Positions 19,437 to 47,926 of a DNA stretch of 64,000 bases are shown piece by piece (within the stretch, counting starts at the first letter, position 1; every line of letters starts with the position of its first letter). The notes beneath the pieces were generated by a model, which saw nothing but the letters and a program-made list of their open reading frames with translations, was not told the origin of the DNA and ran no database searches. A program made the translations under genes and the position numbers. Source of the DNA: a bacterium (GTDB lineage: Bacteria; Auribacterota; UBA3054); contig JAFYHD010000067.1 in the NCBI GenBank assembly GCA_017539325.1, forward strand, positions 821 to 64,820, read 5' to 3'.

Positions 19437-19448
19437 GGAGAAACAAGT

Positions 19449-20114: not shown

Positions 20115-20123
20115 AAATAAGAA

Positions 20124-21227: not shown

Positions 21228-22744
21228 TCTATTTCTTTCAGGGCCTCGTCGACGAGGCGTTTCACTTCGGGCAGTTTGCTCTTCAGCTTTTTCGCGGCCA
21301 AAAGTTCTTCCTTCGCTCCTTTAAGGTCGCCCATCCCGGCCAGACAGCAGGCCAGATTGTAGTGGGCTTCAACGGTCTTCGGGCGAAGCTCGATGGCTTT
21401 CTTGAGATACGGCAGAGCCTCAAGGTAGCGCTCCTTCCCCATAAGAGCCTGGCCGACATTGGCGTTCACCCTGAAGTTTTCCGGCGAATAACGCAGATTG
21501 TCCCGCCAGATCAGCTCCGCGTCGCTCCAGTAGAAGTTGCGTCTGAAGGATGAGAAAACGAAGAGCAGAATGATGATTATCAGAACCGCCGCGTTGGAAA
21601 CGTTCTTTTTCGAAAATATCGTAAAGACGACGGCGATCAATATCCCTGGGAGCGCGCAGTAAAGGCGGTGCTCGTAGAGGCCGTTGGGAATGAGCGTAGC
21701 CGCCGGCGCCAATGAAAGCGCGAAAAAACCCAGCCCGAACGCGAGGTACGGCCACCTTTTCCGGTTGATCCAGGCGAAGACCGCCAAAACCAGCCAGAAC
21801 AATATCGCCGAGATCACCCATGGAGAGGCGAAGCCTTCCAAAGGCACGTCGTACTCCAGCCTCAGCCCGAAGGGCCAGAAGCACAGTCTCAGATACACGG
21901 CCCAGACTTTGAACTGCGTGGCGAAATAAGCCCAAATATCGGGCGTATCGGCGTAAAGTCTTCTCAGCGGTGAAAAGTCGAAGCTTAGCCCCTTCCAAAC
22001 TCCCGCAAAGCGCAGAACAATCAGGCAAAGAACGGCGAAGACAGCCGCCGCCAGCGCAAGGTATTTCTTGTTTTTAGCGAGGAACGTCTTCAGGTCGGCG
22101 GAAGCGAAGACGAAATATCCCAGGAGCGCGATAAGCGGAGCCACCGCCATGTTCTCCTTGCAGAAGAGGCCGGCTATGAGGACCAGGACCGCCGGTATAT
22201 AAAAGAGCTTGTTTTTCAATGCCAGCAGAAGGAAGATCAGATGCGCTATCATGAAGGTGAAGCACAGCAGTTCCAGCCGCTGGACGATATAGGTCACCGC
22301 CTGCGTCTGCACGGGATGGACTAAAAAGAGCGCGGCGCACATGAAGGCCGGAAACCGCTTCTCCTCATTTTCCCCAGCCGCTTCCTGCAAAATCAGAAGA
22401 AACCAGTAGAAGAGGAAACCGTTCAGGATATGGATAAAGAGATTGACAAGGTGGTACCAGAAAATATCGAGCGCGCAGAATTGATAATTGGCCCAAAAGG
22501 TCAGGAAAGCCAGGAAACGCCCGGGCGAAAAGCGCCAGAGCTTTAGAAGCGACCCGCTTCTCAAAGCCTCGTTTTCGACGATGCACCTGAAATCGTCGAA
22601 CTGCCAAGTCCCCTTGAAAGAGGAAACGTAAGCCGCGAGGGCCACAAGCGAAAGCAGGAGAAGATCAAAAAGCCAGCGTTTACTTTTCACCGTCAGGCTT
22701 CTCCCCCAGTTCGTAAACGGCAAGGCCGTCAATGTCGCTGACAA
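21209..22744 (-). CDS. multi-pass membrane protein with C-terminal TPR repeats (TMTC/PMT-like); paralog of 2396..4213
   Basis: N-terminal YVSSFKGTWQFDDFRCIVENEAL motif matches the YYPSxDSSYHLDDFETIVEN motif of the paralog; C-terminal TPR (AHYNLACCLAGMGDLKGAKEELLAAKKL). Confidence 0.6.
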   Translation of the reverse strand: MSATLTALPFTNWGRSLTVKSKRWLFDLLLLSLVALAAYVSSFKGTWQFDDFRCIVENEALRSGSLLKLWRFSPGRFLAFLTFWANYQFCALDIFWYHLVNLFIHILNGFLFYWFLLILQEAAGENEEKRFPAFMCAALFLVHPVQTQAVTYIVQRLELLCFTFMIAHLIFLLLALKNKLFYIPAVLVLIAGLFCKENMAVAPLIALLGYFVFASADLKTFLAKNKKYLALAAAVFAVLCLIVLRFAGVWKGLSFDFSPLRRLYADTPDIWAYFATQFKVWAVYLRLCFWPFGLRLEYDVPLEGFASPWVISAILFWLVLAVFAWINRKRWPYLAFGLGFFALSLAPAATLIPNGLYEHRLYCALPGILIAVVFTIFSKKNVSNAAVLIIIILLFVFSSFRRNFYWSDAELIWRDNLRYSPENFRVNANVGQALMGKERYLEALPYLKKAIELRPKTVEAHYNLACCLAGMGDLKGAKEELLAAKKLKSKLPEVKRLVDEALKEIDQALGK

Positions 22745-24125
22745 GATGGAAGGGCACGCCCTGTTCTTCGAGATAGTTTTTCACGACGGGAGAAACGAAG
22801 AAGTTCCTTTTGCCGGGAACGATCTCATCCCTGACCTCTACGTTTTTGGAGATGAGTTTCGGAAGCGCGGCCAGATGATAGCGGTAATACTCCCCGTCGG
22901 TGTAAACGTCACTGGTCACCAACACGCTGCCGTAAGGGATCGTTCCGATGACCTGGGCAAGCTTCGCCGCCTCAAAAGAGCTTCTCCTTGCTGGAACGCG
23001 GTCGAAACTGTGCAAGGCCATGACAAGGATTCCGATAAAAAGCAGAGGGCATAGCAGCATCCGCATTTCCTTCGCACTGGAGATGTAGATGAAAGAACAG
23101 GCCAAAAAGACCGCGAGATAAGCGTTGATCAGCCAGAACCACTGCGCGATATAAAAGTGAAAGCTCGGAACGCAAAAGAGCAAAGTCGCGAGAAAAGCGG
23201 CAACGGCCGTCGTGTTTTCGAGCGTGGCAAACGTTTTTGCTTTTCTGAAAAAAAGGCCCAGAAGAAGAATGGGAATGACGAAAAGGCTTAGCGCGGAGAA
23301 TTGGAAAAAAGAGCGGGAGCAATCAACAAAGGCTGCACCGTAACCGGAGAGCGGCCGCACGAAGTAATTGCTCCAGAACTGCCCGTTCAATACGGCGCAG
23401 AAAAGGCTTTTCCAAAGATCCTCACGTCTTAGATATTCGCAGCTCTCCCCTTTCCCGAAGACAAAAGCGGCGTAGAGATAAGGAAGCATCCCGACGATAA
23501 GCGCCAGAAGAACCCCGGCGGCGAAAGCCTTTCCCTTTCCGGTTTTGAAAAGCAAAATAGATGCGAACGGCAAAATGATCGCGAAAAACCAGAGCGCCAG
23601 AGGATCGTGAAAAGCCAAAAGGCCGCAGGGAATAAACTTCAAATAAAGCGGGATCGACTCATTGACCAAGACGGCGTAAGCGAAAAAGAAAAGGCAAATG
23701 GACAGGGAAACTGGCGTCACTTCCGTCGCGGCCGTAACGATGAAAGGCAGGAAGCTCACCGCCAAGACCGCGAAGAAAGTGAAGAACCGATCCTTGAAAC
23801 GGCGGCTCAGCGCGTCCCAAAGGAAAACGCAGCCAAAAGAGACAAGGATGGCGGAAAGCAGTGAGAGATTCGCCCCCGGTTCGTAGAGGAATTTCAGATG
23901 CGAAAAAACGCGCAGCATCAGCGTGTAGAGAGGGAAAAGCGGCGTGTGAGGCAAACCGCCCTCGATAGCTATGCGCACGAACTTCGCGGAATCCGCGGAG
24001 GCAAGCGCTCCGCCCGGTCCGTATTGCAGACGGAAGACGAACTGGCAGAGGATGAGGAAAAAAAGCGCTGCGCCCGCGCAGAGCGGGCGCAGAACTTGAA
24101 GACGATCTGAAAACTTAGTAGACAA
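22680..24125 (-). CDS. polytopic membrane protein, GT-C-like (ArnT/PMT-type glycosyltransferase-like), hypothetical
   Basis: 481 aa with ~11 TM helices and a C-terminal soluble domain; overlaps the next gene by 65 nt, so the downstream start is uncertain. Confidence 0.4.
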   Translation of the reverse strand: MSTKFSDRLQVLRPLCAGAALFFLILCQFVFRLQYGPGGALASADSAKFVRIAIEGGLPHTPLFPLYTLMLRVFSHLKFLYEPGANLSLLSAILVSFGCVFLWDALSRRFKDRFFTFFAVLAVSFLPFIVTAATEVTPVSLSICLFFFAYAVLVNESIPLYLKFIPCGLLAFHDPLALWFFAIILPFASILLFKTGKGKAFAAGVLLALIVGMLPYLYAAFVFGKGESCEYLRREDLWKSLFCAVLNGQFWSNYFVRPLSGYGAAFVDCSRSFFQFSALSLFVIPILLLGLFFRKAKTFATLENTTAVAAFLATLLFCVPSFHFYIAQWFWLINAYLAVFLACSFIYISSAKEMRMLLCPLLFIGILVMALHSFDRVPARRSSFEAAKLAQVIGTIPYGSVLVTSDVYTDGEYYRYHLAALPKLISKNVEVRDEIVPGKRNFFVSPVVKNYLEEQGVPFHLVSDIDGLAVYELGEKPDGEK

Positions 24126-24510
24126 ACTCGGTCTCTATTTCGATGGAGGGATTAAGGCTGTTCTTCACCGGGCAGGCTTTGGCCGCGCCCTCCAGCCTTT
24201 TCTTCATGGAGTCTTCCAGAGCGATCTTGGGGAAAATGACTTTCACCTTGAAAGTCTTGACGGAGGCCGGAGACTGCTGCATCTCTTTGTCCACTTCCAC
24301 CGAAAGTCCGGTCATGTCGATCTTCTGCTGGGCGGCCACGAAGCCGATCATGCTGGCCGTGCAGGTCGCCAGGGCGGCGGAAAGAACGTCGGTCGGAGAG
24401 AAGACGCCCGGGGTCCCCTTGGCGTCGGTCTCAATGGAAGTCTGGGCGCCCGCCAAAGTGGCGGTGCACTTAAGGTCGCCATTGTAAGCGGCAATTGCGG
24501 AAAGAGCCAT
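24115..24510 (-). CDS. OsmC/Ohr-family peroxiredoxin-like protein
   Basis: 131 aa; OsmC-like pattern with Cys pairs (LKCTATLAG...LATCTASM...AAKACPV). Confidence 0.8.
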   Translation of the reverse strand: MALSAIAAYNGDLKCTATLAGAQTSIETDAKGTPGVFSPTDVLSAALATCTASMIGFVAAQQKIDMTGLSVEVDKEMQQSPASVKTFKVKVIFPKIALEDSMKKRLEGAAKACPVKNSLNPSIEIETEFVY

Positions 24511-24526
24511 AAATGATCCTCAATAA

Positions 24527-27500
24527 TTAACGGTTACGGCGCATGAACGCTATGAGCGCCAGAATAATGAGCGACAGGGAAGCCGGTTCCGGCGTCAGGA
24601 CGAAATCCTTATAGAAGCTTCCTTCCGTCGTGACAGTATAGTTCTGATTGTCGTAATTGACCGGCCTGACCCTCAGGACGGCCGTCTGATCGAGACCCAA
24701 ATAGATGTCGAAGAAAGGCAGACCGCTCATATTGTGGCGCTGAACGATGTTCTGCGTCTTGGCGTTGACAACCTGGATCTGGGCGTTGGTGACTATTTCG
24801 CAGCCGGTGCCGTACAAGAAGCCGGAAACGTAGGGGCTGTAGCCCGTCGTTCTGACAGGAATGGTGGGCGTTCCGGTGGAGGAGGTCACGTTGGTCACAT
24901 ACTGCGCCCTGTCGCCGTACCTTACGGTCATGATGTAATCGCCGTAAGGCAGAGTGAAGGCCGTGGTGCGGCCGGTCGAAGTGACCAGCGACTTAAAGTT
25001 GGCGATCTGCGCCTCGGCGTCCACCAGGGGGAAATTGGAGTTGTCGTCCGTCACGCTGGCGTAGACGAAGCCGTGCTTTTCGGTGAATTCCGTATCGAAG
25101 ACCACGCACTTGGCGGAATTGGTCAGCGCCACTTCCGCTATCCTTCCCTCGTACTCGTCGTGGGAGAAGGAAAGATAGACTTTGCCCGCAGGCACGGCGT
25201 CGAAGACGAAAGTGCCGTCCGCTTTGTTGGAGACCGCGAAGGCGAATCCGTCGCCCACGGCTCTCACAAGCGCGCCGCCAAGGTATCCGCTGCCGAAATA
25301 TGTGTTGGTGCATGCCACGCCCGAAATAACATAGTTCTCGGGGGGGACCGGGTCGCTCTTCAGAACCGTCAGTTTCAGGATCTTGGGAGCGCTCACGCAT
25401 TCGTCGTTAGCGGCGTAGACCGCGATATAGTAAACGCCCGGCACCGTCGTGGAGCAGATGATTTCGCTGCCTTCCGAGGCGCTCATGATATTCCCGTCGG
25501 GATTGTAGGGATCCTGACGCCACAGGGCTCGCTTGCCCAGGAGGAAGCTGGTCTTGATGGTGACTGGCTTGCCGGAATAGCAGGTGTAATCCTGGGTGTT
25601 GTCGGGGAAGGCGGCGCTGACGGAGAGCGGCTGGTTGCCGTCGTAATACAAAGCCGTGCTGTTCATGTTACCGTTTCCATCCTTGACCTGGCACTGGACG
25701 TAATAGGACCTGTCTTTCTCAAAAGTGTGCTCGATCGGACCGAGATCCTGCCAGATCGTCCAGCCGGCGCCGTTGTCCCAGTTGTAGCGGACTTGCAGCC
25801 CTTCCCTGTCTTCCGGCACCACAATAGGTTCATACGTCACGGTAGTTCCGAGGGAGGCCGTCTCCACAAGATAAACGTTGGGATTGTTGTCGATTATAGT
25901 CAGCGTCGTGTTGGTGGTGGCCAGGATGGCGCCCGTGCCTTTTTCCAAACTGAGCGTCAGCGTATGCTCGCCGACGCCGTAATTGGCCGTGATAAGCTCC
26001 ATGAAGCTGGAGTTGGCCGCGCTCACGGGTTCGCCGTCGACGAGCCACTTGTAGCGGTAGCCGCCCATGGTGCCGGTGCCGTCCAACATCACTTTAGAGT
26101 CGCGGTACGCCACGTAGGGGCCGTTGGGATCAATGGCATAGTCGGTGATAGCCGGAGTGCTGACAACGACATCGTATTCCGTTTCGTTGATCACGACTTT
26201 GACGTTGAAGGTCTTGGCCATTCCCCCGGTCTTCAGAGGATCGATCCAGACGGCCACCGGGACTGACCCGGAAGCGGTGGGATATAACGTCCCTCTGCTA
26301 GGCGAGAATTTAAGGGAATCGAAAGAATTCCTGATGACGTAATCGCAGGGCACGGATCCTACGTTGCTGAGAAGCAAAACTCCGCTGCGGCCGTTTTCCA
26401 GACTCAGCGTGGCCGGCACCACGGGACGCGCTTCGGAATCGTCGATCACGTAAGGCATCGTGGTTTCCGTCCAGGCGCCGTAATTGTCTTTGACCTGACA
26501 CTTGACGGTATACGATCCGCTTGTCTCATAGGTGTGCCTGGCGAAGTAATAGTTCGTCCAGTCGGAATAGCCGCTGCCGTCGCCGAAGTCCCAGCGGATG
26601 TCTAAGGAGTCGTGGATGCCGGGGTCTTTGGGATCGGCGGTGAAGATCTGAGGCACGTCGACCATTCTCGTTTCCGCTTCGCTCCAGATGGCGACGTGCG
26701 GGTACGCGTTGGTCACGTGCAGCACCGTATAGTTGGTGCAGATGCAGGTCCTGAACTGGCGGTCCGTCACTCTCACCTCAACGTCATAATCGCCGGGCCA
26801 GTAGATCTGGTCTTCCTTGTAGTCGTAGTAATAGAAGTTTGTGCTGAAAAGCGTCATGTCGCTGCCCACGAGCCAGCGCACGGCCGGGAAATAGCCCTTA
26901 GAGCCTTCCGCGGACAGATGCGCCGCCTGGCCCTGGCCGATCGTGTATTCGCCGTTGCATTCCGCGCTGACGTCGGGGATGCCCCTGACGCCCTTGCGGG
27001 GTTCCGGAGTCGGGAAATCGCCGGTCAGCCAGTAGAAGTAAGTCTGGCCGGGAGTGGCGTCCGCGTCGTCGTAAGCCTGGAAGGTGTTGTCCCCTTCACG
27101 GACCTTCTCGGCTGTCGCAAAGTCTTCAACGGTATTGCGCCAAAGAGTGACGTCCCCTTTCGTGGTGTTGCGCCAGCGCAGCCTGATCTTGTCGTCTCCG
27201 TTCATGCAGATGAAGCTGTAAGGCACGGCCCTGTTCTTGATCGAGTCGAAGGTGTAGCCCAGGCAGAATTCGTCGAAGGTCATCTTGAAGCCGGAAGGCG
27301 CGTAGAGATACAAGCTGGAGAAACTGGAACCCCAGTAAGAGTAGCCGTATTTGTGGAAAGCGCAGTCGCTCGTTTTGGGTTCCTCGCTCATATCCGGGTT
27401 GATCCACAGATAAACGTCCGTATAGGCGTATCCCGCCTCGTTGGTCGTTATCGTGCAGCGGGCCAGATAATGGGCCGGCGTTCCGAAGTTATGCTTGATG

Positions 27501-29182
27501 CCCGTGCCGAAATCGAACACGTTGATCGTGCCGTCCTTGTAGAAAGTGAAGGCTTCGTACGAGCCGCCGAGCCTGAAACCGCCGTAGCCGTAAGAGCCGC
27601 CCTCTTCGTCCATGTCGGCCCAGACCGAGAGCCAGATGTCGTTTCCCGCGAGCGTGTCAAGGGAGGCGGGAGAATATTTCATCCAGTTGATGAAGCGCCT
27701 GGTGGTGGCCGTTTCGGAAGATTCGTTGCAGATCCTCAAGCTTCCGCCCTCATGCATGGCGGAATCGTCGCCGAGATCCATTTCCTGGATGAAGAAAATG
27801 TTGGAAAGGCAGGAATACCAAGGGCTCGCGAAACCGCAGCCGGCTTCCTTGAACATCAAGCCGCTGCCTATTGGGTAATTGAAGCTCTCATGCAGGATCA
27901 TGTCCCCCGCCGCGTGGTAAGGCACGGAGCGGTAGCGCGAAGCGTAGCGGCGCGTCTTCTCCCAGGTCAGGGCCACCTGGCACTTCAGGTTCGTGGAGAT
28001 GGGCACTCCGTCGTAGAAAATATTAGTGGAGCTGAAATAGTTGAAGATGCCGTTGGATCTGGCCAACACCGAGCCGTATTCCATAGGCGCGCCCGGAGGC
28101 GTGTTGTGGCAGCCGTGGCTGTGCTTGAAAAGTCCGCCGCTGCTCGTGCCGGTCTCATCGTAGTGCTGGCCGCCCATGTTGTGGCCGTCCTCGTGGATCC
28201 AGCCGGTGGTGTTGACGAAGTTCACGTCCATGCAGTTGTTGGCGGAGCTTTCGCTGCCGGCCACTCCGCCCGACACGTAGGCAAGACCTGTGTAGGTTGG
28301 CATCAGAACCGCGATCGAGCACATGTCGGCGCCGTAGCGGGCTCTCAGCTGCTCGATCTGCTCAAGCCCGTTCCTGGAGTTGCACAGGCTGCTGAGCGCG
28401 AGGCTGGAATTGCAGATCTCGCCCACCGGGTTGGGATAATCGACGAGCTGGGAATGCGCGAGGTTGAAGCAGGACCTGACGTGGCTGTTGCTAAGAATGA
28501 GCGTTCCCAAAACGATGCCCTGGGCCATGACGTTGTTGATGCCGCCCCTGTCCATCGCCTCGGCCACCGCTTCCTTGGTGTAGACGATCATGTAGTGCTG
28601 GGTGACGTACTCGTCGCACTGCCAGTCGTTGGTGTAATACTGCTCGGCCTCGATCTTGTCCATGACCTGCCTCACGCCGTCTCTTGCGATAACGTCGTCA
28701 ATGGGTCCGTCGCAGCCGCCGCACGTGAAGTTCTTGGTGTTCGGTTCGAGGGCCGTCAGCGTCTTGGTCTTGTCGTTGTACAGGATCGCATATTCATGGT
28801 TCAGGTAAGTGTAGTCCACCTGACCAAGCATCTGGTCCTGGTCGGTGGTGAAACGCCAGATCTCGTTGTAGCCGTTGTTGCGGGGCTGGAAATAGCCCGC
28901 TCTGACTTCCACCAAATTGATATCGCGGTAAGCCACCGTGCACTTTCCGGTGAAGACGCCGTCCGGGGAATTGAAGAAAATTGTGTCCCCTACTTCCAGC
29001 GCCCTGATCTGCTCCGGCAGATCGGAAGGCTGAAGCTTGGTGATGTCCCTTTCATAGCCGCCGGTTATGGTGGGCGGTTCCTGGCAGGTCAGGTCAACGG
29101 TAAGGATCTCCTTCGGCGGCGTGCCGAAGGCCAACGCTGTGAAAATTGCAGCAAGGCCGCAAAGCAAAAGTGCTTTTTTCAT
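24527..29182 (-). CDS. giant secreted metzincin-type zinc metalloprotease with PKD and CarbopepD-reg-like domains and a C-terminal PEP-CTERM sorting signal
   Basis: 1551 aa; signal peptide; zinc site IHEDGHNMGGQHY (HExxHxxGxxH); PKD-like IRWDFGDGSGY...YTVKCQVKDNYGAW; C-terminus TPEPASLSLIILALIAFMRRNR (PEP, TM helix, basic tail). Confidence 0.8.
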   Translation of the reverse strand: MKKALLLCGLAAIFTALAFGTPPKEILTVDLTCQEPPTITGGYERDITKLQPSDLPEQIRALEVGDTIFFNSPDGVFTGKCTVAYRDINLVEVRAGYFQPRNNGYNEIWRFTTDQDQMLGQVDYTYLNHEYAILYNDKTKTLTALEPNTKNFTCGGCDGPIDDVIARDGVRQVMDKIEAEQYYTNDWQCDEYVTQHYMIVYTKEAVAEAMDRGGINNVMAQGIVLGTLILSNSHVRSCFNLAHSQLVDYPNPVGEICNSSLALSSLCNSRNGLEQIEQLRARYGADMCSIAVLMPTYTGLAYVSGGVAGSESSANNCMDVNFVNTTGWIHEDGHNMGGQHYDETGTSSGGLFKHSHGCHNTPPGAPMEYGSVLARSNGIFNYFSSTNIFYDGVPISTNLKCQVALTWEKTRRYASRYRSVPYHAAGDMILHESFNYPIGSGLMFKEAGCGFASPWYSCLSNIFFIQEMDLGDDSAMHEGGSLRICNESSETATTRRFINWMKYSPASLDTLAGNDIWLSVWADMDEEGGSYGYGGFRLGGSYEAFTFYKDGTINVFDFGTGIKHNFGTPAHYLARCTITTNEAGYAYTDVYLWINPDMSEEPKTSDCAFHKYGYSYWGSSFSSLYLYAPSGFKMTFDEFCLGYTFDSIKNRAVPYSFICMNGDDKIRLRWRNTTKGDVTLWRNTVEDFATAEKVREGDNTFQAYDDADATPGQTYFYWLTGDFPTPEPRKGVRGIPDVSAECNGEYTIGQGQAAHLSAEGSKGYFPAVRWLVGSDMTLFSTNFYYYDYKEDQIYWPGDYDVEVRVTDRQFRTCICTNYTVLHVTNAYPHVAIWSEAETRMVDVPQIFTADPKDPGIHDSLDIRWDFGDGSGYSDWTNYYFARHTYETSGSYTVKCQVKDNYGAWTETTMPYVIDDSEARPVVPATLSLENGRSGVLLLSNVGSVPCDYVIRNSFDSLKFSPSRGTLYPTASGSVPVAVWIDPLKTGGMAKTFNVKVVINETEYDVVVSTPAITDYAIDPNGPYVAYRDSKVMLDGTGTMGGYRYKWLVDGEPVSAANSSFMELITANYGVGEHTLTLSLEKGTGAILATTNTTLTIIDNNPNVYLVETASLGTTVTYEPIVVPEDREGLQVRYNWDNGAGWTIWQDLGPIEHTFEKDRSYYVQCQVKDGNGNMNSTALYYDGNQPLSVSAAFPDNTQDYTCYSGKPVTIKTSFLLGKRALWRQDPYNPDGNIMSASEGSEIICSTTVPGVYYIAVYAANDECVSAPKILKLTVLKSDPVPPENYVISGVACTNTYFGSGYLGGALVRAVGDGFAFAVSNKADGTFVFDAVPAGKVYLSFSHDEYEGRIAEVALTNSAKCVVFDTEFTEKHGFVYASVTDDNSNFPLVDAEAQIANFKSLVTSTGRTTAFTLPYGDYIMTVRYGDRAQYVTNVTSSTGTPTIPVRTTGYSPYVSGFLYGTGCEIVTNAQIQVVNAKTQNIVQRHNMSGLPFFDIYLGLDQTAVLRVRPVNYDNQNYTVTTEGSFYKDFVLTPEPASLSLIILALIAFMRRNR

Positions 29183-29225
29183 ATTTCGTATCCTTTTATT
29201 GATTGTTCTCTATCTGTTTATTCTA

Positions 29226-38560: not shown

Positions 38561-41500
38561 TTACCTTTTTTCGTTTCTCAAATATATAAGGCCTATGGCA
38601 AAAAGGAGGAGCGGCGCCAATAAAGGTTCCGGCGTCAAAACCGTGTCTTTGTGCCAGTTGTTTTCAAGCTGTATGTCGATGTTCAAATTGTCGTATTCAT
38701 AGGGGCGGAAGCGCAGCGTCGTTAAGGTCTCGCCAAGGATCACGTCGTAGAACGGCGCGCCGTCGAGGTTGTAGCGCTTGGCTATGTTCATGGTCTCCTT
38801 GGAGAGGACCTGGAGCTGCGCGTTCGTCACGATCTCGTTTCCGGTCCCGTAAGCGATGCCGGAAAGCGCGTACTGACGCCCTTTCATGGCAACAGAGATC
38901 GTTGCCGGCTTGGAACCGACCGTCGCGTTGGTTATGACGCGGTCCATGCCGGGGTAATTCAATTCCGCGAGATAATCGCCCAAGGGCAGCGCCAGAGCCG
39001 CGGAGCGCCCCTTGCTGTTTGTGAACACTTTCTGACCGGCCACGGTTATCGCGACGCCTTCCAAAGGAAGGTTGGAACGCTCTCCCACGCAGTTGAAATA
39101 GAGATACCCGAAAGAGGAGCTCCTTTCCAACGCGAAAGCGCAGCCCGTGTTTGCGTTTATGTTGGTAAGGCAGGGAGAATGGTCCGGATGGGTGATGTTA
39201 AGCGTTAGAGCGTCTCCGCCGGAAAAGCTCGGGAAAGAAAAAGAACCGTAGGCGCTGTTGGTGATCCAGTATATCTCGTTCCCCGTGGAAACGGCAAGAA
39301 CGCAGCCTTCCAGGGGGCCGGAGCCGAACATGGTGTTGGTCGTGACCGTGCCGTTGAGGTCCCAGGAAACGAGTTCCCTTGAAGGAAGTCCGACTTCCAC
39401 CGTAAGGACTTTCGGAGCGGAGATCGCTTCGCCGTTCCCAGCATAGTAGGCGAAATAGTAAGTTCCGGCTTTCTCAAAGGGCCCGCAGGCGGTGACGGCG
39501 GCAAGTTTGTCGGCTATCAGTCCGACGTCCGGATTCATGGGATCCTCGCGCCAGTAATTCCCAAGGGTAGCGTACCCTTCAAGCTCTATGCTTTCGCCCG
39601 CCGAGAGCGTTATGAAAGCGTCTTCGCTTCCGTTGATCTTAGGCTTGGGATCAAACTTGAATTCCGGCCTGAACATGAAAGAGGAGCCGTTCACGCTCCC
39701 GCGCTGGTTTATCTCGCAGTGGATATGGCGGTCTCCCCCGCCGCTGAATTCATGTTCGAATTCCGAATCGGGGTTAACAGCCTGCCAGGTGGTCCAGCCC
39801 ATGTCTTCGTCCCAGTTGAACCTGATGGACGTCCCCTCTTTGTAAGGCGCCAGAACGGGTCTTAAGCGCACGCTTCTTTCCGTGCGGGAAACTTCCTCAA
39901 GGTAGACTCTCGAAACGAGCGGATTAACGAAGACGTTGGTCTCCAAACTGCCCGCGAGCCTGTTCTCGCCGTCATAGGCCGCGAGCGTCAAGACATGCGT
40001 TCCGCCGTCGGTTCCCGAAACGATCTCGGAAACGCCTCCTTCCGCCGCTTCCTCCCCGTCGAGGAGCCATTTGTAAGAATAGCCCGGCGTGGAGCCGAAG
40101 TTGTTGAGGCGGAGGACGTCGCCTTCGTTGAGCGTGAAATTGCCGCTCTGCGCCAGCAAAGGATAAGCGTCGGACGACAGGGTCTTGACATTAACGGTCT
40201 CTTCTTTGCCGTCGGCCGTAAGAGTGAACCGGTATTCCGCCGCCTTGCCAAGAGCGGCGGGATCGACCTTTACGAGCAACGTCCTGCCGTCAGGCCCGAC
40301 GCTGCCGGATATTGGCCCCACCGAAAGAGGCTGTTCTTCCGGAACGGCCACGGAATAATCGTAAGGAAGAGTCCCGAAATTTTTCATTTCAAGCCCGACC
40401 CTGTCCGAACCAACGGGTACGATAACGTTCGTAGGGAAACTGGGAATGGATCTGGCTTCGGCAAGAGCGAGATCCAAGTCCTTTTCCGTCACCGCTCCGT
40501 AATTGTCCCTGACCTGGCACTTCAGGACCTTTTCGCCGGAAGTCTGGTATTGATGCACAAAGTAAAGGCCGGAAGTCCATTCCGTCCATTCCCCGTCCTC
40601 TTCGGCGCGCCAGCGGACTAGGAACGTGTCGTTGGTGCCAGGGTCGCTTGGGAAAGCCTGGAAAGTGAGCGGCCTTCCCGCCATAAGGCTCCCGTTGATC
40701 AGGGCGACATTGAGTTTCGGGTAAGAGTTGGTGACGGTAAGCGTCGTGTAATTCGTCACAACCCCGTCGTAAGGGCGCCTTCTGTCGCGCATGATCAAAG
40801 TCACGTCGTAAGTTCCGGGGTCATAAGTGTCGGTGTAAGCGTAGACCATGTTGTTGGTCTTCATCTGAGACTGCACTCCCCTAAGCTGCCACCGGAAGGC
40901 CGGCATCCAGCCTTTGGATGCGGAGGCGTCAAAATAGTTGGTCTCGCCCTGCCCCACGACGTAAGGCCCGCCGGCGTCCGCGCTCTGATTCAGATTTCCG
41001 AGCAGCCCTGATATCGGCATGGTGAAAAGCCTTTCCTCCGCGGAGTCTGTAGGAGCGGCCATGTAGTAATAGACCTTGCCCGTTTCCGCCGTGTCGTCGT
41101 CAAGGACAACTCTTCCGCCTTCCGTTGAAACAGTATTTAAATATGTCCTGCCGGAAAAATCTTTCGTTTCGCTTCTGTAAACGTCGTATTCCCCGGCGGC
41201 GGCAAGGAAGGAGAAACAAAGGGAATTCTCCCGTTCCTCGAGCAAAGGATCCTGGGGATGCTGTTTTATAAGCACGTCCTCCCAGCTTTTGCCGAGCCTG
41301 ACTTCATCAACGATGAACTTCGCTCCCTTCCTGCCTTCGATGACCACCCGGTTGGAAGCGATGCCGGTCATGTTGTAAGCAACGTTGGCGTCAGCCGAAT
41401 CGGGCTGCGGTTCGGCATCAAGGGCGGGATCCATCCAGAAATATATCTTGTTGAGATACAGATCGACTTTCGCCACGAAAAGGTTGGTTGAAAAAGGCTC

Positions 41501-43108
41501 CAACGCGCGGCCGGTCGCGGCGTTGTTAAGGTAGATAAGATCGGTCCCGGCGTTCTTCGCGATCCTGATCCTTGAACCGAGGCCTACGCCGAAATAATTG
41601 TCGTCATCGTTCTGACGGCTCACAAGGCAGGAGAACCAGAAAGTGGATTCGGCGCCTTTGTTGAAAGGAAAGCGCCGCTCGTAGTCGCCGCCGCAGCGCC
41701 AGATGGCGTTGCTTGTCCAGGCGTCCATCATAACGGCGCTGCCGCTGGAATGCAGCCCGGGATAGCTTAAGCCGCCGCAGATCTGGTAGACCTTGTTGGA
41801 GCAGGTCCACCAGGGCTCGAACCAGCCTGTCCCGCCTTCCTGCCACATGAGCGAATCGTCAAGCTTGTACAGGAAGCTTTCCTCCGCCAGTATTCTGGAA
41901 GGCTTGGCCTTGGCGTGGTAATTGGCGGCGTATTTCCTGATCTTCTTCCAGGTGCGGGCCACGTTGCGCCTGCCGTCCACGCCCAAAGGAACGCCCTCTA
42001 TGAAGGCGTTGGTGTCCGAAAAATTGTCCGTCCTGTGCCCGGCGTAGGCCATGATGCTGCCATATGAGTCGTCGCCGCGCAAAGTGTAGAAGCTGCCGAC
42101 GGAATGCCCGAAAAGGCCGCCGTTGGAAGGCCCGGCGCTGTAGCTTTGCTCGATGGCGTGCTGGCCGCCCATGTTGTGGCCGATCTCGTGGATCCAGCTG
42201 TGCCAACTCATGTAGTCCACGTTGATCATGTGCGCGGGATCCCTGTCGCTGATGCCGGAAGCCGTGCTCGCCACATAGGCCAAACCGCCATAGTTGCTGT
42301 TTTCCGGAACGATGGACCTTACGTCGGCGCCGTAGTGGCACTGCAGATATTTCACGTTGCTAAAAGGCCCCCTGTTGCTGCCGAAAGCGCTGAGATCCGT
42401 GCCTCCGTTGCCGGTGCTGACGTAATCCACCGCTTCGCTGTGGGCAAGCACCAGCCTCGTCGGCACGCCGCTGTTTTCCAAACTGAGGTTTCCGAGCGCC
42501 AGGCCCTGGGCGATAAGGTTGTTGATGCCGCCGCGCTCCGCGTATTTCTTGCTGGCGTTCTTCGTGTAGATGACGAGAAAGGTCTGCGTCGTCATGACAT
42601 CGTCGTCCCAGATCTTGGGATCGTCCTTCTGGTCGACAGCGGAGGCGTGTATTTCGGCGTCCCCTTCGTTGACGCCGCACTTCAGGGGATATTTTTTCTC
42701 GAAAGCGGCGACGTCCATGCAGTCAATGTTGAGGGGATGTCTGCCGAATCTTTTCAAAAGATCGTAGCTTTCCGGCTTAAGGGCATCGTAAACTCTGCCC
42801 ATCAGGGCGTCGTCGTCCCAGGTCATGCGGAAATGGCCGAGCCTGTCGTCAAGAAAGCCCGCCCTCACTTCCACGAAGTTGACGTCCATGTAGCAATAGG
42901 AGACCGTGCCCGTGAGCGCGGTCGTCGAGGAAGTCTTGATGACGAGCTTGTCCCCCATTCGGAGCGCTTTCACATTGTCGACGAAATCGGCGTCCTGGTT
43001 TCCGCTGATGTCGCCTTTAAGCGTGACGCGCGGCGAAATGTCTATGACGCGCTCCCGGGCTGCCAGCGTCAGCGCGGCGAAAATTAAAAGCAGGAATGAT
43101 CTTTTCAT
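38561..43108 (-). CDS. giant secreted metzincin-type zinc metalloprotease with PEP-CTERM (third paralog)
   Basis: 1515 aa; signal peptide; zinc site IHEIGHNMGGQHAIE; PKD-like segment (FLVRWRAEEDGEWTEW...KVLKCQVRDNYGAV); C-terminus LTPEPLLAPLLLFAIGLIYLRNEKR. Confidence 0.8.
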   Translation of the reverse strand: MKRSFLLLIFAALTLAARERVIDISPRVTLKGDISGNQDADFVDNVKALRMGDKLVIKTSSTTALTGTVSYCYMDVNFVEVRAGFLDDRLGHFRMTWDDDALMGRVYDALKPESYDLLKRFGRHPLNIDCMDVAAFEKKYPLKCGVNEGDAEIHASAVDQKDDPKIWDDDVMTTQTFLVIYTKNASKKYAERGGINNLIAQGLALGNLSLENSGVPTRLVLAHSEAVDYVSTGNGGTDLSAFGSNRGPFSNVKYLQCHYGADVRSIVPENSNYGGLAYVASTASGISDRDPAHMINVDYMSWHSWIHEIGHNMGGQHAIEQSYSAGPSNGGLFGHSVGSFYTLRGDDSYGSIMAYAGHRTDNFSDTNAFIEGVPLGVDGRRNVARTWKKIRKYAANYHAKAKPSRILAEESFLYKLDDSLMWQEGGTGWFEPWWTCSNKVYQICGGLSYPGLHSSGSAVMMDAWTSNAIWRCGGDYERRFPFNKGAESTFWFSCLVSRQNDDDNYFGVGLGSRIRIAKNAGTDLIYLNNAATGRALEPFSTNLFVAKVDLYLNKIYFWMDPALDAEPQPDSADANVAYNMTGIASNRVVIEGRKGAKFIVDEVRLGKSWEDVLIKQHPQDPLLEERENSLCFSFLAAAGEYDVYRSETKDFSGRTYLNTVSTEGGRVVLDDDTAETGKVYYYMAAPTDSAEERLFTMPISGLLGNLNQSADAGGPYVVGQGETNYFDASASKGWMPAFRWQLRGVQSQMKTNNMVYAYTDTYDPGTYDVTLIMRDRRRPYDGVVTNYTTLTVTNSYPKLNVALINGSLMAGRPLTFQAFPSDPGTNDTFLVRWRAEEDGEWTEWTSGLYFVHQYQTSGEKVLKCQVRDNYGAVTEKDLDLALAEARSIPSFPTNVIVPVGSDRVGLEMKNFGTLPYDYSVAVPEEQPLSVGPISGSVGPDGRTLLVKVDPAALGKAAEYRFTLTADGKEETVNVKTLSSDAYPLLAQSGNFTLNEGDVLRLNNFGSTPGYSYKWLLDGEEAAEGGVSEIVSGTDGGTHVLTLAAYDGENRLAGSLETNVFVNPLVSRVYLEEVSRTERSVRLRPVLAPYKEGTSIRFNWDEDMGWTTWQAVNPDSEFEHEFSGGGDRHIHCEINQRGSVNGSSFMFRPEFKFDPKPKINGSEDAFITLSAGESIELEGYATLGNYWREDPMNPDVGLIADKLAAVTACGPFEKAGTYYFAYYAGNGEAISAPKVLTVEVGLPSRELVSWDLNGTVTTNTMFGSGPLEGCVLAVSTGNEIYWITNSAYGSFSFPSFSGGDALTLNITHPDHSPCLTNINANTGCAFALERSSSFGYLYFNCVGERSNLPLEGVAITVAGQKVFTNSKGRSAALALPLGDYLAELNYPGMDRVITNATVGSKPATISVAMKGRQYALSGIAYGTGNEIVTNAQLQVLSKETMNIAKRYNLDGAPFYDVILGETLTTLRFRPYEYDNLNIDIQLENNWHKDTVLTPEPLLAPLLLFAIGLIYLRNEKR

Positions 43109-43157
43109 GTCAGGCTTCCAGATTTTTATAAATAAAACACATATATTTATATTTTAG
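43109..43157 (-). promoter_or_regulatory. AT-rich putative promoter/RBS region of the PEP-CTERM protease operon
   Basis: AT-rich stretch in a GC-rich genome immediately 5' of the 43108 start; minus-strand TTGCTA...17 nt...TTTTAT and a GGAAG RBS 8 nt before the ATG. Confidence 0.25.
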
Positions 43158-43197
43158 CAAAAAAACGCCCCGCTCGAACATACGAACGGGGCGTCGG
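43158..43197 (-). terminator. rho-independent terminator downstream of lptB
   Basis: Minus-strand ACGCCCCG-TTCGTATGTTCGAG-CGGGGCGT hairpin followed by TTTTTTTGC. Confidence 0.5.
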
Positions 43198-43224
43198 AAA
43201 AATTTCCAAATTTTAAGGAAAAAA

Positions 43225-43974
43225 TCAGATCCTGAAATCTTCGCCGAGGTAGATCCTGCGGGCTTCCGGATCGTTGATAAGCTTGTCGGCGGAGCCTTCT
43301 ATAAGGATCTCGCCCTGATTGATAAGATAAGCCCTGTCGGTCACGGAGAGCGTCTCCCTAACGTTGTGGTCGGTGATCAGAATGGCCAGGTCGCGGTGCT
43401 TCAGCTCCCTGATGATCTGCTGGACGTCCGCCACGGCGATCGGGTCGACGCCGGAGAAAGGTTCGTCGAGCAGTATGAGCGAGGGGCTCGTGACCAGCGC
43501 GCGGGCGATCTCAAGGCGCCTGCGTTCGCCGCCGGAAAGCGTGTAGGCCTTGCTTTTGGCGAGTTTCGAGATGCCGAGCTCTTCCAGGAGCTCATAGGAT
43601 CTCTTCTTCATCTCGTCCCGTTTCATGGGCAGCGTTTCCATAATGGCCATGATGTTCTCGAAGCTCGTCATGCGCCTGAAAACGGAAGGCTCCTGCGCCA
43701 GATAAGCGATGCCGTGCTGGGCGCGGTCGCACATCGGGTCGTTGGTGATATCCCTGCCCTGGAAGACCACTCTTCCAGAATTGGGACGGATGATGCCCAC
43801 TATCATGTAGAAGGTCGTCGTCTTGCCTGCGCCGTTGGGGCCCAGAAGACCGACGATCTCGCCTTTGTTGACATGGATGCTGACGCCTTTGACTACATTG
43901 CGCTGGTTGTAAGTCTTGACCAGCTTTTCAGTGTAAAGGACGGCGTCATTCGGCGGCGTGAAGTCTCCGCTCAT
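43225..43974 (-). CDS. lptB: LPS export ABC transporter ATP-binding protein
   Basis: Walker A GPNGAGKTT, ABC signature LSGGERRRLEIARAL, Walker B ILLDEPF; position at the end of the kds-lpt operon. Confidence 0.9.
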   Translation of the reverse strand: MSGDFTPPNDAVLYTEKLVKTYNQRNVVKGVSIHVNKGEIVGLLGPNGAGKTTTFYMIVGIIRPNSGRVVFQGRDITNDPMCDRAQHGIAYLAQEPSVFRRMTSFENIMAIMETLPMKRDEMKKRSYELLEELGISKLAKSKAYTLSGGERRRLEIARALVTSPSLILLDEPFSGVDPIAVADVQQIIRELKHRDLAILITDHNVRETLSVTDRAYLINQGEILIEGSADKLINDPEARRIYLGEDFRI

Positions 43975-44486
43975 TTTTCCTCCTTGATGTTGGGAAGTCT
44001 GAGCTTCCCGTCCTGGATGTTCAGGGTAATACGGGCGCCGTCGTCCAGGCTGAGCTTCTTGTGGCGATTGTCCCAGGTGATGGCTGAGCCCGAGGCGGTG
44101 TTGCCCCTCAGGTCGCGCATGATGGGTTCCCCGGTCATCCTGAAAGTGTCTTTCACCGCGTCGTAGGTAAGCTTGTTGCCGGTGACAGTCCCCTGCGAAG
44201 TGCGGATGAGGACTCTGCCCAAAGCCTCGATCTTGCCGATGTCGTGCGTCGACTGATCCTGGTAGACGATGGCTTTGTCGGCCCTGACGGAAACGTTCGT
44301 GATGCGGTTGGCGGCCGTGCCGAAAGCGTCCACGGACGTAAGCTTGACGTTGCCGGTGAGGACGAAGGTCCCGTTAGTCTCCATGGTGGTGGAGTCGGCC
44401 GTGATCATCACGCGGCCGCTGCCTTCCTCGGCGAAAAGCGTTCCGCAGAGAAGAAGCACTAATATCAGACTGAGTTTTTTTAGCAT
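43971..44486 (-). CDS. lptA: LPS transport periplasmic protein LptA (OstA-like)
   Basis: Signal peptide; OstA_N-like beta-jellyroll repeats (ITADSTTMETNGTFVLTGNVKLT...); overlaps lptB by 4 nt. Confidence 0.65.
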   Translation of the reverse strand: MLKKLSLILVLLLCGTLFAEEGSGRVMITADSTTMETNGTFVLTGNVKLTSVDAFGTAANRITNVSVRADKAIVYQDQSTHDIGKIEALGRVLIRTSQGTVTGNKLTYDAVKDTFRMTGEPIMRDLRGNTASGSAITWDNRHKKLSLDDGARITLNIQDGKLRLPNIKEEK

Positions 44487-44499
44487 GAGCGTTTCCCTT

Positions 44500-45039
44500 T
44501 TAGAATAAGAATTTTTCCTTGTCCTCGCTTGAAGGCGTAAGAATGATCTCAGGAGACTCGAAATCGCACTTGGCCTTCAGAAGGTCGACCGTAAGGCGGC
44601 GGCAGCGGATATAGTTCGAGCCGTTGCGGACAATGGGCGGCCCTCCGGTCATGATGACCTTGTTCTGGGCTTTTTCCCAAATGCCGCGGTCGGCGATGAC
44701 CTCCGTCTTGGTGTTGGTCTGGTCGTTGAAAACGACGTGCACGTTGCCGACGGCCACGACGCGCGAAAAGCCGTCCACGCCCTTCAATCCGAGCTCCTCG
44801 ACAGCCTGGTCGCCGCCCTTCTTGTCATCCTCGAAATAGACGGTGGCGTTGTCGGTCGTGAGCTTGCGCTCGCCGTCTGTCACGACGACGTGACCCCTTA
44901 AGTAAGCCGTGTTCTCCTCGAAGGAGTATTTCAGTTCATCGGAATTGATGGTGACGTCGCTCTTCTCATCTTCTTTCGCGAAGAGGGAGAGCGCCGCGCA
45001 CAAAAGTATGAATACAGACGCTTTGAGCTTCATGATCAT
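44500..45039 (-). CDS. second LptA/OstA-like periplasmic protein
   Basis: Signal peptide plus an OstA-like repeat pattern (TINSDELKYSFEENTAYLRGHVVVTDGERKLTTDNATVYF). Confidence 0.5.
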   Translation of the reverse strand: MIMKLKASVFILLCAALSLFAKEDEKSDVTINSDELKYSFEENTAYLRGHVVVTDGERKLTTDNATVYFEDDKKGGDQAVEELGLKGVDGFSRVVAVGNVHVVFNDQTNTKTEVIADRGIWEKAQNKVIMTGGPPIVRNGSNYIRCRRLTVDLLKAKCDFESPEIILTPSSEDKEKFLF

Positions 45040-45542
45040 TTCCCCGCTTTGAAAACTTCTATGCTGTTTTTCTCCACTTTGGCCTTGATCTCAACATCAT
45101 GGAAAAGCTTGCATTCCTTCTTTTCCTTGGTGTAGATGACGTAGAGGCCGCGCCCTTTTATCACTCTGTCGCCGTCCAGCAGCTGAACGGTCTTGTCCGT
45201 TTCAATTTCTCCGGTCTCCCTGTTGACGTCGGCGTATTCCGTCAGGAGCTTGACGACCGTGCCGTCGCGCCTGAAGAGCGTCACGATCACGTCATAGACG
45301 CGGATCTTCGAGCCTTCCGACTGTTTGGCGCTGGAGCCCTCCAGGACCCAGCGGCGGTCGCCCGTCTCGTCAACTTCCATCACCGTCACGCCGTCAAGCA
45401 TCTCCATCTCGTCGAGCATCTCGTCGCGGCTGTTGCCGGACTTGACGTTCTGAGTGGCCGCGACCGCCGTTTTGGCGGGGGCCTTCTCCTCCGCCAAAAG
45501 CGGAGACGCGAGAAGCAAAACTATGATCAGCAGCTTAAGCAT
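45036..45542 (-). CDS. lptC: LptC-like protein
   Basis: 168 aa with an N-terminal anchor, positioned between kdsC and lptA as in canonical kdsD-kdsC-lptC-lptA-lptB operons. Confidence 0.45.
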   Translation of the reverse strand: MLKLLIIVLLLASPLLAEEKAPAKTAVAATQNVKSGNSRDEMLDEMEMLDGVTVMEVDETGDRRWVLEGSSAKQSEGSKIRVYDVIVTLFRRDGTVVKLLTEYADVNRETGEIETDKTVQLLDGDRVIKGRGLYVIYTKEKKECKLFHDVEIKAKVEKNSIEVFKAGK

Positions 45543-46086
45543 AATAATCGGCTATGACTTTTTCCCAAAGGGATTGACCTTTCAAAATATATTCTATCAC
45601 TTCTCTGACAGCGCCATGTCCTCCGGGTTTCAAAGTCACGAGCTGGGCCGCTTCCCTGCATTCGTTGGAAGCGTCGCCCACCGCCACGGGAAGCCCCGCC
45701 TCGCGCATCATGGGGATGTCTATGATGTCGTCGCCGATGACGCAGATCTCGTTCAAGGGAACGCCGCATTCACGCGAAAAACGCTTCAGGACTTCCGCTT
45801 TGTCGCCGCATTTCTGGTAGACGTATTTCAGGCCGAAATCCTGCGCGCGTTCGCTGACGGCGACGGATTCGCGCCCCGTGATGACCGCGAAGTCATACCC
45901 CGCTTTCAGCCAGAGCCTGACGCCGAGGCCGTCCTTGCAGTCGAAGCGCTTCAATTCCATGCCGGCTGTCCCGTAGATGATGCCGCCGTCCGTCATGACG
46001 CCGTCGATGTCGACCGCGATGGCTTTTATGGAGCGCAGAGCCGCGAGCTGTTCCGGAGTGGGATTTTTGTCTTGCCAGTGAGGCAT
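45535..46086 (-). CDS. kdsC: 3-deoxy-D-manno-octulosonate 8-phosphate phosphatase (HAD family)
   Basis: IKAIAVDIDGVMTDGGIIYG...FDCKDGLGVRLWLKAGYDFAVITGRES, characteristic of KdsC. Confidence 0.85.
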   Translation of the reverse strand: MPHWQDKNPTPEQLAALRSIKAIAVDIDGVMTDGGIIYGTAGMELKRFDCKDGLGVRLWLKAGYDFAVITGRESVAVSERAQDFGLKYVYQKCGDKAEVLKRFSRECGVPLNEICVIGDDIIDIPMMREAGLPVAVGDASNECREAAQLVTLKPGGHGAVREVIEYILKGQSLWEKVIADYYA

Positions 46087-46088
46087 TT

Positions 46089-47066: not shown

Positions 47067-47926
47067 TCGTCAACTTTCATAAGCATTTCAGTGAGCGCTC
47101 CGAACTTTTCGAGCGGCCAGCTGTTCGGGCCGTCGCAGAGCGCCTTGTCGGGGTCGGGGTGAACTTCCATGAAGACGCCGTCAACTCCGGCCGCCACGGC
47201 GGCTCTGGCCAGAAGCGGCACGAAGGTCCTGTCGCCGCCGGAGCAGGTCCCCTGCCCGCTGGGCAGCTGGACGGAGTGCGTGGCGTCGAAGATGACAGGC
47301 ACACCAATCTGGCGCATGACCATAAGACCGCGCATGTCGACCACGAGATTGCCGTAGCCGAAAGCAGCGCCCCTTTCCGTCAGCATGATCTTTTCGTTGC
47401 CGGTGGAAGCGACTTTCGCCACGGCCTGGGCCATCGTCTGTGGAGCCACGAATTGGCCCTTCTTAATATTTATCACACGTCCGCTGCGGCCGGCTTCGAC
47501 CAAAAGGTCAGTCTGGCGGCAGAGGAAGGCTGGGATCTGGATGACGTCCGCGACGGCGGCCACTTTCTCGACCTGCCAGCTCTCATGGACGTCGGTCACT
47601 ATCGGCAAACCTGTCTCTTTCTTCACTTCGGCAAGTATCTCAAGGCCCTTTTCCAATCCAGGGCCGCGGAAATTGTTGACCGAAGTGCGGTTCGCCTTGT
47701 CAAAACTCGCTTTGAATACAAGAGAGAAGCCTTTTTCCTGCGCGATCTTTTTTAGCGCGAAAGCTTCTTCCATAACTTTGTCGGGGCTTTCTATAACGCA
47801 GGGGCCGGCCATGAAGAAAAGCGGCTCTCCGCCGCCCGCGAAAAACGACGCTATCCCGACTTTGCGCGTGGCAACTTTTTCCGGCTTGGCGCTGACGCTG
47901 ATATCGTATTTGTCGTCAGTCATCAA
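47048..47926 (-). CDS. kdsA: 3-deoxy-8-phosphooctulonate synthase
   Basis: FFMAGPCVIES...FKASFDKANRTS...GLPIVTDVHE KdsA motifs. Confidence 0.9.
   Translation of the reverse strand: MMTDDKYDISVSAKPEKVATRKVGIASFFAGGGEPLFFMAGPCVIESPDKVMEEAFALKKIAQEKGFSLVFKASFDKANRTSVNNFRGPGLEKGLEILAEVKKETGLPIVTDVHESWQVEKVAAVADVIQIPAFLCRQTDLLVEAGRSGRVINIKKGQFVAPQTMAQAVAKVASTGNEKIMLTERGAAFGYGNLVVDMRGLMVMRQIGVPVIFDATHSVQLPSGQGTCSGGDRTFVPLLARAAVAAGVDGVFMEVHPDPDKALCDGPNSWPLEKFGALTEMLMKVDECVNGE

Follow-up and report, generated by a model that had tools for sequence, protein, structure and literature searches.

What are the very large proteins encoded directly downstream of the lipopolysaccharide (LPS) transport genes in UBP3 bacteria, and is the block that encodes them a recent acquisition or a property of the lineage? 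We addressed this question in a 64-kb window (the whole stretch of DNA analyzed, 64,000 nucleotides (nt) of contig JAFYHD010000067.1), in which positions 24527..43108 of the minus strand encode three paralogs of ~1,515–1,551 amino acids (aa), termed M1, M2 and M3, together with a hormone-sensitive lipase (HSL)-type esterase and a protein of LTD-CotH-LTD organization. According to published reports, the candidate phylum UBP3 is specific to the ruminant forestomach (PMC8831627) and its genomes are rich in carbohydrate-active enzymes (PMC9765126). We consider it moderately likely that the block is a conserved, UBP3-lineage-specific and self-contained unit of exosortase-sorted, zymogen-activated surface metalloproteases.

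The domain content of the paralogs marks them, at differing strength, as metzincin-type proteins. M1 begins with a predicted signal peptide and continues with a putative β prodomain (~aa 40–140), a catalytic metzincin domain (~171–400) that we read as adamalysin/M72-like, a ConA-like domain read as lectin-like (~440–650), an Fn3-like domain, a PKD/Ig stalk, CarboxypepD_reg-like domains and a PEP-CTERM tail. Pfam profiles place M1 above the cut-offs of both Reprolysin_5 (35.1 versus 27) and Reprolysin_3 (30.8 versus 22.4), and M3 just below that of Reprolysin_5 (25.0 versus 27). PKD or PKD_4 was matched in all three paralogs. Of the domains assigned to them in a preliminary description of this DNA, metzincin and PKD are borne out by hidden Markov models and CarboxypepD_reg is matched below its cut-off only. 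The zinc motifs given there (HEIGHNMGGQH, HEDGHTMGGRH and HEDGHNMGGQH) are all present. In the alignment, H307, E308, H311, G314 and H317 of M1 are invariant across 116–132 relatives, and the zinc ligands and catalytic Glu are unchanged in all paralogs and orthologs. Furthermore, at the position of M353, the Met-turn, 90% or more of the broad family have Met (YGSIMAY in M1, YGSVMAR in M2). The NCBIfam model of Mep72 (M72) matches M1 at E 1e-14 and M3 at 2e-10; because these scores (54.0 and 39.9 bits) lie far under the cut-off of the equivalog NF052434 (645 bits) and cover only profile positions 5–194 of 573, M1 and M3 are, as judged by profile comparison, not Mep72 orthologs.

To place the family more broadly, a profile built from residues 1–440 of M1, M2 and M3 was searched exhaustively against 1.84 billion representatives, giving 6,296 matches at E ≤ 1e-3, 2,391 at E ≤ 1e-10 and 13 at E ≤ 1e-30 (a word-indexed query with the N-terminal part of M1 gave only two distant matches and missed known orthologs, and the exhaustive profile search was used instead). 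Sampled matches passed the Pfam Reprolysin cut-offs in eight of eight cases. Full-length relatives were restricted to UBP3-type metagenome-assembled genomes (MAGs), the remaining matches sharing the catalytic domain; among 158 examined proteins, ~36 have part of the N-terminal module as well, and PEP-CTERM-like tails occur in UBP3-type members only. Against PDB sequences, the profile found nothing better than ADAMTS-5 at E~1. M1, M2 and M3 are 30–42% identical to one another and 74–98% identical inside each orthologous group, as would befit old paralog lines. Fourth and fifth lines are found elsewhere in related genomes (P0014, 1,613 aa; P0015, 1,693 aa, named "PEP-CTERM sorting domain-containing protein" at NCBI). 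P0014, which is 25% identical to M3 and has a PEP-CTERM tail, lies at 10001..14842 of related locus L019, ~9 kb downstream of the M3-OsmC block and adjoining exbB/exbD.

An AlphaFold2 model of M1 residues 1–700, computed from a deep alignment, reached a mean predicted local distance difference test (pLDDT) score of 77.1 and a predicted template modelling score of 0.70, with pLDDT ~90 in the N-terminal module and catalytic domain (an earlier run on a 13-sequence alignment, with a pLDDT of 41.7, was discarded). Fold searches with the model support a metzincin catalytic fold, and Foldseek agrees. The reading of the two flanking regions as a prodomain and as a lectin-like β-jelly-roll is drawn from the model, since Pfam gives no match at E ≤ 5 for the N-terminal module or for residues 400–720. 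A K-C-G motif, containing Cys144, stands ~30 residues ahead of the catalytic domain and is invariant in the UBP3 family; in 116 broader relatives, the C144 column is Cys in 42, mostly as C-G, with Glu the commonest preceding residue. Prodomains of ADAM and MMP proteases carry cysteine-switch motifs resembling K-C-G, and by analogy Cys144 may possibly act as a cysteine switch within the putative prodomain.

All three paralogs and the CotH protein end in a PEP-CTERM tail. With each tail scanned alone (cut-offs of 16 bits for TIGR02595 and 20.7 bits for PF07589), TIGR02595 was the best match for all four, and PF07589 passed its cut-off in M3 only. A pattern scan for PEP, a hydrophobic helix and a basic cluster selected exactly these four proteins in the window, in agreement with the PEP-CTERM assignment first proposed. 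All orthologs likewise bear a PEP-CTERM tail, as do unrelated LTD, CotH and GLUG proteins of the lineage, including other large LTD/CotH proteins. Because the tails recur on all orthologs and on such unrelated proteins, a dedicated sorting enzyme is likely encoded elsewhere in the genome.

Across 185,579 species-representative genomes, the family was detected in only eight, each a ruminant gastrointestinal MAG (water buffalo, yak, goat) or a MAG labelled "bacterium UBP3_UBA3054", and a scan of 241 million Joint Genome Institute (JGI) metagenome records yielded nine loci. Proteins of the window are 60–98% identical to those of related MAGs, and its placement in UBP3 is deduced from these identities together with the single UBP3 label. 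The order lptB-M1-M2-esterase-M3-OsmC-10-TM protein-TPR protein (TM, transmembrane) is kept wherever the locus is long enough (eight GTDB species and metagenome contigs), and GC content, both overall and at third codon positions (GC3), of M1, M2, M3 and the esterase matches that of lptB and OsmC. On the basis of this conserved site and order downstream of lptB, the matching GC and the old paralog lines, the M1-M2-esterase-M3-OsmC block is a core feature of the lineage and not the accessory system initially suggested. The preliminary description had also contemplated that the block might prove to be a core locus of known annotated function; core it is, and a known function is not annotated, the public copies inspected being named "hypothetical protein" or by domain label only.

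Table 1 Features of the M1-M2-esterase-CotH-M3-OsmC unit and its boundaries, in window coordinates and from the upstream end
Feature	Position	Strand	Description or basis
Intrinsic terminator of the kdsB-kdsA-kdsD-kdsC-lptC-lptA-lptA-lptB operon	43164..43195	-	13-bp stem, 9 GC pairs, T7 tail
AT-rich promoter-like element 5' of M1	43109..43163	-	TTGCTAAAATATAAATATATGTGTTTTATTTATAAA, then GGAAG ahead of ATG
M1 ORF	38561..43108	-	1515 aa
Cys144 of K-C-G, candidate cysteine-switch residue	42677..42679	-	conservation
M1 zinc site HEIGHNMGGQH (H307, E308, H311, G314, H317)	42158..42190	-	sequence and alignment
M1 PEP-CTERM tail	38564..38635	-	TPEPLLAPLLLFAIGLIYLRNEKR; TIGR02595 15.8 bits
M2	33910..38556	-	1548-codon paralog, architecture and tail as M1 and M3; one in-frame stop
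1104-aa ORF (front of M2)	35242..38556	-	ORF map
In-frame TGA in M2	35242..35244	-	ORF comparison
431-aa ORF (rear of M2)	33910..35205	-	ORF map
M2 PEP-CTERM tail	33913..33987	-	TPEPALIALLMLLLALKWRRYVFSY; TIGR02595 15.8 bits
HSL-family esterase (predicted secretion)	32786..33937	-	383 aa; Abhydrolase_3 PF07859 65.5 bits versus cut-off 25
LTD - CHB_HEX_C/Fn3_assoc - CotH - LTD protein with PEP-CTERM	29226..32789	-	1187 aa
CotH-protein PEP-CTERM tail	29229..29300	-	IPEPTAFLALLLLLSALFKKPAAF; TIGR02595 16.4 bits
M3	24527..29182	-	1551-aa paralog, architecture as M1
M3 PEP-CTERM tail	24530..24595	-	TPEPASLSLIILALIAFMRRNR; TIGR02595 20.5 bits; PF07589 21.5 bits
OsmC-like protein, last gene of unit	24115..24510	-	131 aa; PF02566, 66.5 bits
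Predicted terminator-like hairpin after OsmC	24068..24092	-	10-bp stem, 9 GC pairs, T-rich tail

The open reading frame (ORF) map of the block (Table 1) reproduces exactly the tightly packed, co-oriented arrangement first described, with six minus-strand ORFs whose neighbour spacings are, in order, +4, +36, -28, -4 and +43 nt. Two of these ORFs are parts of one gene. The 1104-aa ORF, previously taken for a shorter paralog, is the front of full-length M2 cut by a stop; it shares its frame with the 431-aa ORF, from which it is parted by the TGA and twelve sense codons only. In an independent assembly (L016) that is 96% identical at the nucleotide level over 19.7 kb, M2 is intact and the codon is AGA (Arg), and Arg occupies this position in all M2 orthologs, which are intact at 1,539–1,546 aa. 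Since the near-identical assembly has AGA and all orthologs have Arg, the TGA reflects either a nonsense mutation particular to this strain or an erroneous base call. Recoding of TGA was ruled out by the AGA in that assembly together with the ending of other window ORFs at standard stops.

Of the two proteins encoded between M2 and M3, the esterase stands at the same position in all related loci that span the site. Its assignment to the HSL family, as first proposed, is upheld by an above-cut-off Abhydrolase_3 match and by the oxyanion and nucleophile motifs HGGG and GDSAG, read from the sequence along with a C-terminal His; NCBIfam models of HSL subfamilies scored below their cut-offs (69 versus 430). 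The CotH and LTD assignments also stand, with above-cut-off matches to LTD (PF00932, 95.2 bits in two stretches) and CotH (PF08757, 63.5 bits), a CHB_HEX_C_1 match of 67 bits and the order LTD-CotH-LTD, an architecture that is common (437 matches at E ≤ 1e-10). The view of this "atypical kinase" as an integral part of the cluster does not hold. The gene has a GC content of 47.8% and a GC3 of 55%, versus 54–58% and 73–79% in neighbouring operon genes, and occurs otherwise only in L016, where it is 100% identical; no CotH homolog was found at the site in any other related locus. It is fitted between the esterase, whose stop its start overlaps (ATGA), and M3, 43 nt away. By composition and distribution, the CotH protein is thus best described as a passenger, a strain-specific insertion rather than a defining part. 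Its nearest relatives are 43% identical and some lie within the lineage; the nearest named ones form a tandem CotH pair beside mreC/PBP2 in RGIG9765 (L017, 1..5510), one of them PEP-CTERM-tailed. In a different slot, between M2 and the esterase, a gene inserted in locus L004 of another species (19198..20484) encodes a GLUG-repeat protein of 428 aa that itself has a PEP-CTERM tail. Given these insertions in two slots, additional genes for PEP-CTERM cargo are tolerated in the operon and perhaps even attracted to it.

Operon, promoter and terminator calls were made by consensus scans combined with conservation. Over the 116 nt 5' of M1, the terminator of the lpt operon comes first; then come the conserved AT-rich block and, finally, the start of M1. 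The terminator on the lptB side is kept in L002, L005, L006, L010 and L011, and in L011 its stem is changed on both sides (TTCG/CGAG to TTTG/CAAA). The AT-rich element, a putative promoter, is near-identical in five related loci and recognisable in L004 and L007, even though an extra 1.8-kb gene parts M1 from lptB there. In these two species the gene (L004, 8213..9814; L007, ~3430..5000) codes for a right-handed β-helix protein of 533 aa (Beta_helix, weak GH28) and sits between lptB and the promoter-like element. The proposal of one long operon behind an AT-rich region is therefore in keeping with the consensus predictions, which locate both a terminator and a conserved promoter-like element there. 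At the other end, OsmC starts 16 nt past M3 and follows it in all related loci reaching that point, and the predicted hairpin beyond it keeps its stem, with a variable loop, in L001, L002, L012, L013 and L014; the hairpin falls within the longest reading of the next ORF, and its role is uncertain. Because OsmC lies so close to M3 and is followed by this conserved hairpin, the transcription unit likely runs from ~43160 to ~24070, a little longer than the block initially reported.

Pairwise comparison of orthologs revealed purifying selection throughout, with dN/dS of 0.10–0.28 overall and no positive selection detected at pairwise resolution (dN/dS <0.3 everywhere). Constraint is strongest in the catalytic domain (dN 0.01–0.05 at dS 0.3–0.7), which argues that the protease head is functional, and the stalk and C-terminal parts evolve 3–10x faster than the head. 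Superimposed on this pattern is recombination. Relative to L016, the window is 95–100% identical in nucleotides from M2 onward and 55–82% identical across M1; relative to L006, it is 96–99% identical in M1, 85–95% in the kds/lpt genes and 76–93% in much of M2. In L020, kds/lpt proteins are 94–99.7% and M2 97% identical to those of the window, and M1 only 61% (aa). As M1 matches L006 while the flanks match L016 and L020, an allele from a different species has taken the place of the entire M1 gene in the window strain, with a downstream breakpoint at the M1/M2 junction and an upstream breakpoint at or close to the spacer between lptB and M1 (38400..43224 compared). Slow evolution was considered for the 98% identity of M1 to L002 and L006 and set aside in favour of recent allele import by this comparison of flanks. 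M3 is mosaic, its first ~1.5 kb being 97–98% identical to L013 and the part that follows 79–86% (window 27238..28738 compared), which marks an internal breakpoint, and M2 is mosaic too.

We propose that M1, M2 and M3 would be made as latent precursors, with a Sec signal peptide driving export and the β-sandwich prodomain probably blocking the active site, possibly via the invariant Cys of K-C-G. An exosortase encoded elsewhere would cleave the PEP-CTERM helix and the protein would be passed to the cell surface or exopolysaccharide layer. Removal of the prodomain would release an active adamalysin/M72-like zinc endopeptidase, and the ConA-like lectin domain would bind carbohydrate or substrate, so that a head of protease and lectin is displayed on a long Fn3/PKD/Ig stalk with two CarboxypepD_reg-like β-sandwiches. 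The co-transcribed secreted esterase may act on the same extracellular material.

Several observations weigh against this proposal. With regard to sorting, the M1 and M2 tails score 0.2 bits under the TIGR02595 cut-off, the signal peptides were read by inspection (N-termini of MKK or MKR followed by 15–20 hydrophobic residues), and no exosortase-like gene was found among the scanned ORFs of the window, as had been noted before, or listed in the fetched related loci. With regard to catalysis, the Pfam scan of M2 gave no Reprolysin or other protease match, M2 of the window strain carries its premature stop, and the Met-turn of M3 in the window has Leu (YGSVLAR), as in some M3 orthologs, others having Met. 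With regard to latency, the cysteine switch is suggested by sequence context, the linker around Cys144 being modelled at a pLDDT of 45–60, and in profragilysin, a close structural match, the switch residue is an aspartate.

Other interpretations were weighed. Under one of them, which we judge unlikely, the paralogs would be glycan-guided O-glycoproteases like CpaA, an M72 metzincin that cuts at O-glycosylated Ser/Thr (PMC7542363), with the ConA-like domain reading the glycan and plant hydroxyproline-rich glycoproteins or host and protozoal mucin-like proteins as targets. CpaA is the top structural match, NCBIfam gives weak matches to the M72 members Mep72 and CpaA, a lectin-like jelly-roll comes straight after the catalytic domain, and a wealth of carbohydrate-active enzymes is reported for UBP3 (PMC9765126); identity to CpaA is, however, only ~15%, and ConA-like domains also occur without sugar binding. 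Moreover, the four Ig-like repeats of CpaA help to form its substrate cleft (PMC7542363), whereas the neighbouring domain here differs in fold and flanks the catalytic domain on its opposite side, and glycoprotease specificity is not assignable from homology (PMC7542363). It is distinctly unlikely, in our estimation, that the paralogs are mainly structural or adhesive coat proteins, whose protease-like head would serve only binding or self-maturation and whose variability would stem from pressure by phage, protozoa or host antibodies. Their great length and Ig/PKD stalks, the replacement of a whole M1 allele, the mosaicism of M2 and M3, the faster change (3–10x) of stalk and C-terminal parts relative to the head and the evident losability of M2 in one strain would all suit such a role, but zinc ligands and catalytic Glu are invariant in every paralog and ortholog, the catalytic domain is under the strongest constraint and dN/dS nowhere reaches 0.3.

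The earlier view of the block as a horizontally acquired accessory island concerns its origin, and we hold it to be highly improbable. It draws on the scarcity of relatives (of 1.84 billion representatives, 13 proteins reach E ≤ 1e-30), the foreign composition of the CotH gene and the movement of alleles between species. Against it stand an order and site shared by all eight related species representatives and the metagenome contigs, GC and GC3 values of M1, M2, M3 and the esterase like those of lptB and OsmC, and the long divergence of the paralogs at 30–42% identity.

The closest known proteases are CpaA (Acinetobacter, M72, PDB 6O38) and Mep72 (Pseudomonas aeruginosa, M72), at ~15% identity and with equivalog scores of 14 versus 750 for CpaA and 54 versus 645 for Mep72. 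CpaA is a substrate of the type II secretion system, needs the CpaB chaperone and has Ig-like repeats that precede its catalytic domain; unlike CpaA and Mep72, M1–M3 have a putative N-terminal prodomain, a C-terminal lectin-like domain, a stalk of ~800 aa and a PEP-CTERM anchor. Profragilysin-3/BFT and metalloproteinase II of Bacteroides fragilis and the ADAM17 zymogen are likewise adamalysin-type, but are ~330–400 aa long or type I membrane proteins; fragilysin has an aspartate switch, and none of these zymogens has a lectin/PKD/CarboxypepD_reg/PEP-CTERM extension. As in described PEP-CTERM/exosortase sorting (PMC1569441), the PEP motif, hydrophobic helix and basic end are at the extreme C-terminus, N-termini resemble signal peptides, several cargo proteins occur per genome, and genes of polysaccharide and glycosyltransferase type are close by. 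According to Haft et al. (2006, PMC1569441), PEP-CTERM genes mostly stand alone as one-gene operons preceded by long intergenic stretches; here, in contrast, four cargo genes are packed into one predicted operon, and the sequence examined yielded no partner exosortase. LTD-CotH-LTD proteins of Planctomycetota and Verrucomicrobiota have the same LTD, CHB_HEX_C_1/Fn3_assoc and CotH architecture as the 1187-aa protein, which differs from them in its PEP-CTERM tail, in being 43% identical to the nearest and in its location in a protease operon of the window strain (and L016).

Several neighbouring features were also recorded. Directly upstream, at 43225..48660, lies a complete operon for 3-deoxy-D-manno-octulosonate (KDO) synthesis and LPS transport (kdsB, kdsA, kdsD, kdsC, lptC, two lptA-like genes and lptB), and the protease operon presumably occupies the place after the lpt genes where many Proteobacteria have rpoN. 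Downstream, at 21209..24125, OsmC is always followed by a 481-aa 10-TM protein and an adjoining 511-aa TPR protein. The 10-TM protein has a TMEM260-like (GT-C O-mannosyltransferase) match of 20.6 bits, below the cut-off of 24.2. Eukaryotic TMEM260 mannosylates Ig-like IPT domains, and glycosylation of the Ig-like stalks by the 10-TM and TPR proteins is conceivable but unsupported; with the match below cut-off and nothing else in its favour, it stays a lead only. Farther away (13273..15833), ORFs of 251 aa and 564 aa lie in different frames and jointly span the length of a single 853-aa Wzy_C (O-antigen-ligase-like) gene of L001, which points to a frameshift (apparent site 13950..14140) or a misassembly of the window. 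Three signal-peptide proteins (4224..4886, 56471..57973 and 57988..59613) have no Pfam match and very acidic, Glu/Ala/Pro-rich low-complexity tails.

Every component of the block is of a known family, and as a system the block is of no new kind; what has not been described before is the full-length family with its architecture, both found in one lineage only. The advance is incremental rather than conceptual, because each component family was already known, and its new details are the conservation of the operon, the passenger insertions and the whole-gene allele replacement. A more far-reaching picture, which we regard as unlikely, would have UBP3 coat itself with recombining, lectin-guided zymogen proteases, anchored by exosortase (possibly to LPS or exopolysaccharide made by the flanking operons), that strip feed glycoproteins such as plant extensins and arabinogalactan proteins, the operon serving as a landing pad for new PEP-CTERM cargo such as CotH here and the GLUG-repeat protein in L004.

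For the UBP3 lineage, the locus provides a signature of 14 kb of core coding sequence (~18 kb here, with the CotH insert) and candidate surface proteases that may take part in the breakdown of rumen protein and glycoprotein. It also offers a natural set of very large PEP-CTERM cargo for the study of exosortase sorting, and it clearly exemplifies the exchange of an entire allele at a locus for surface proteins.

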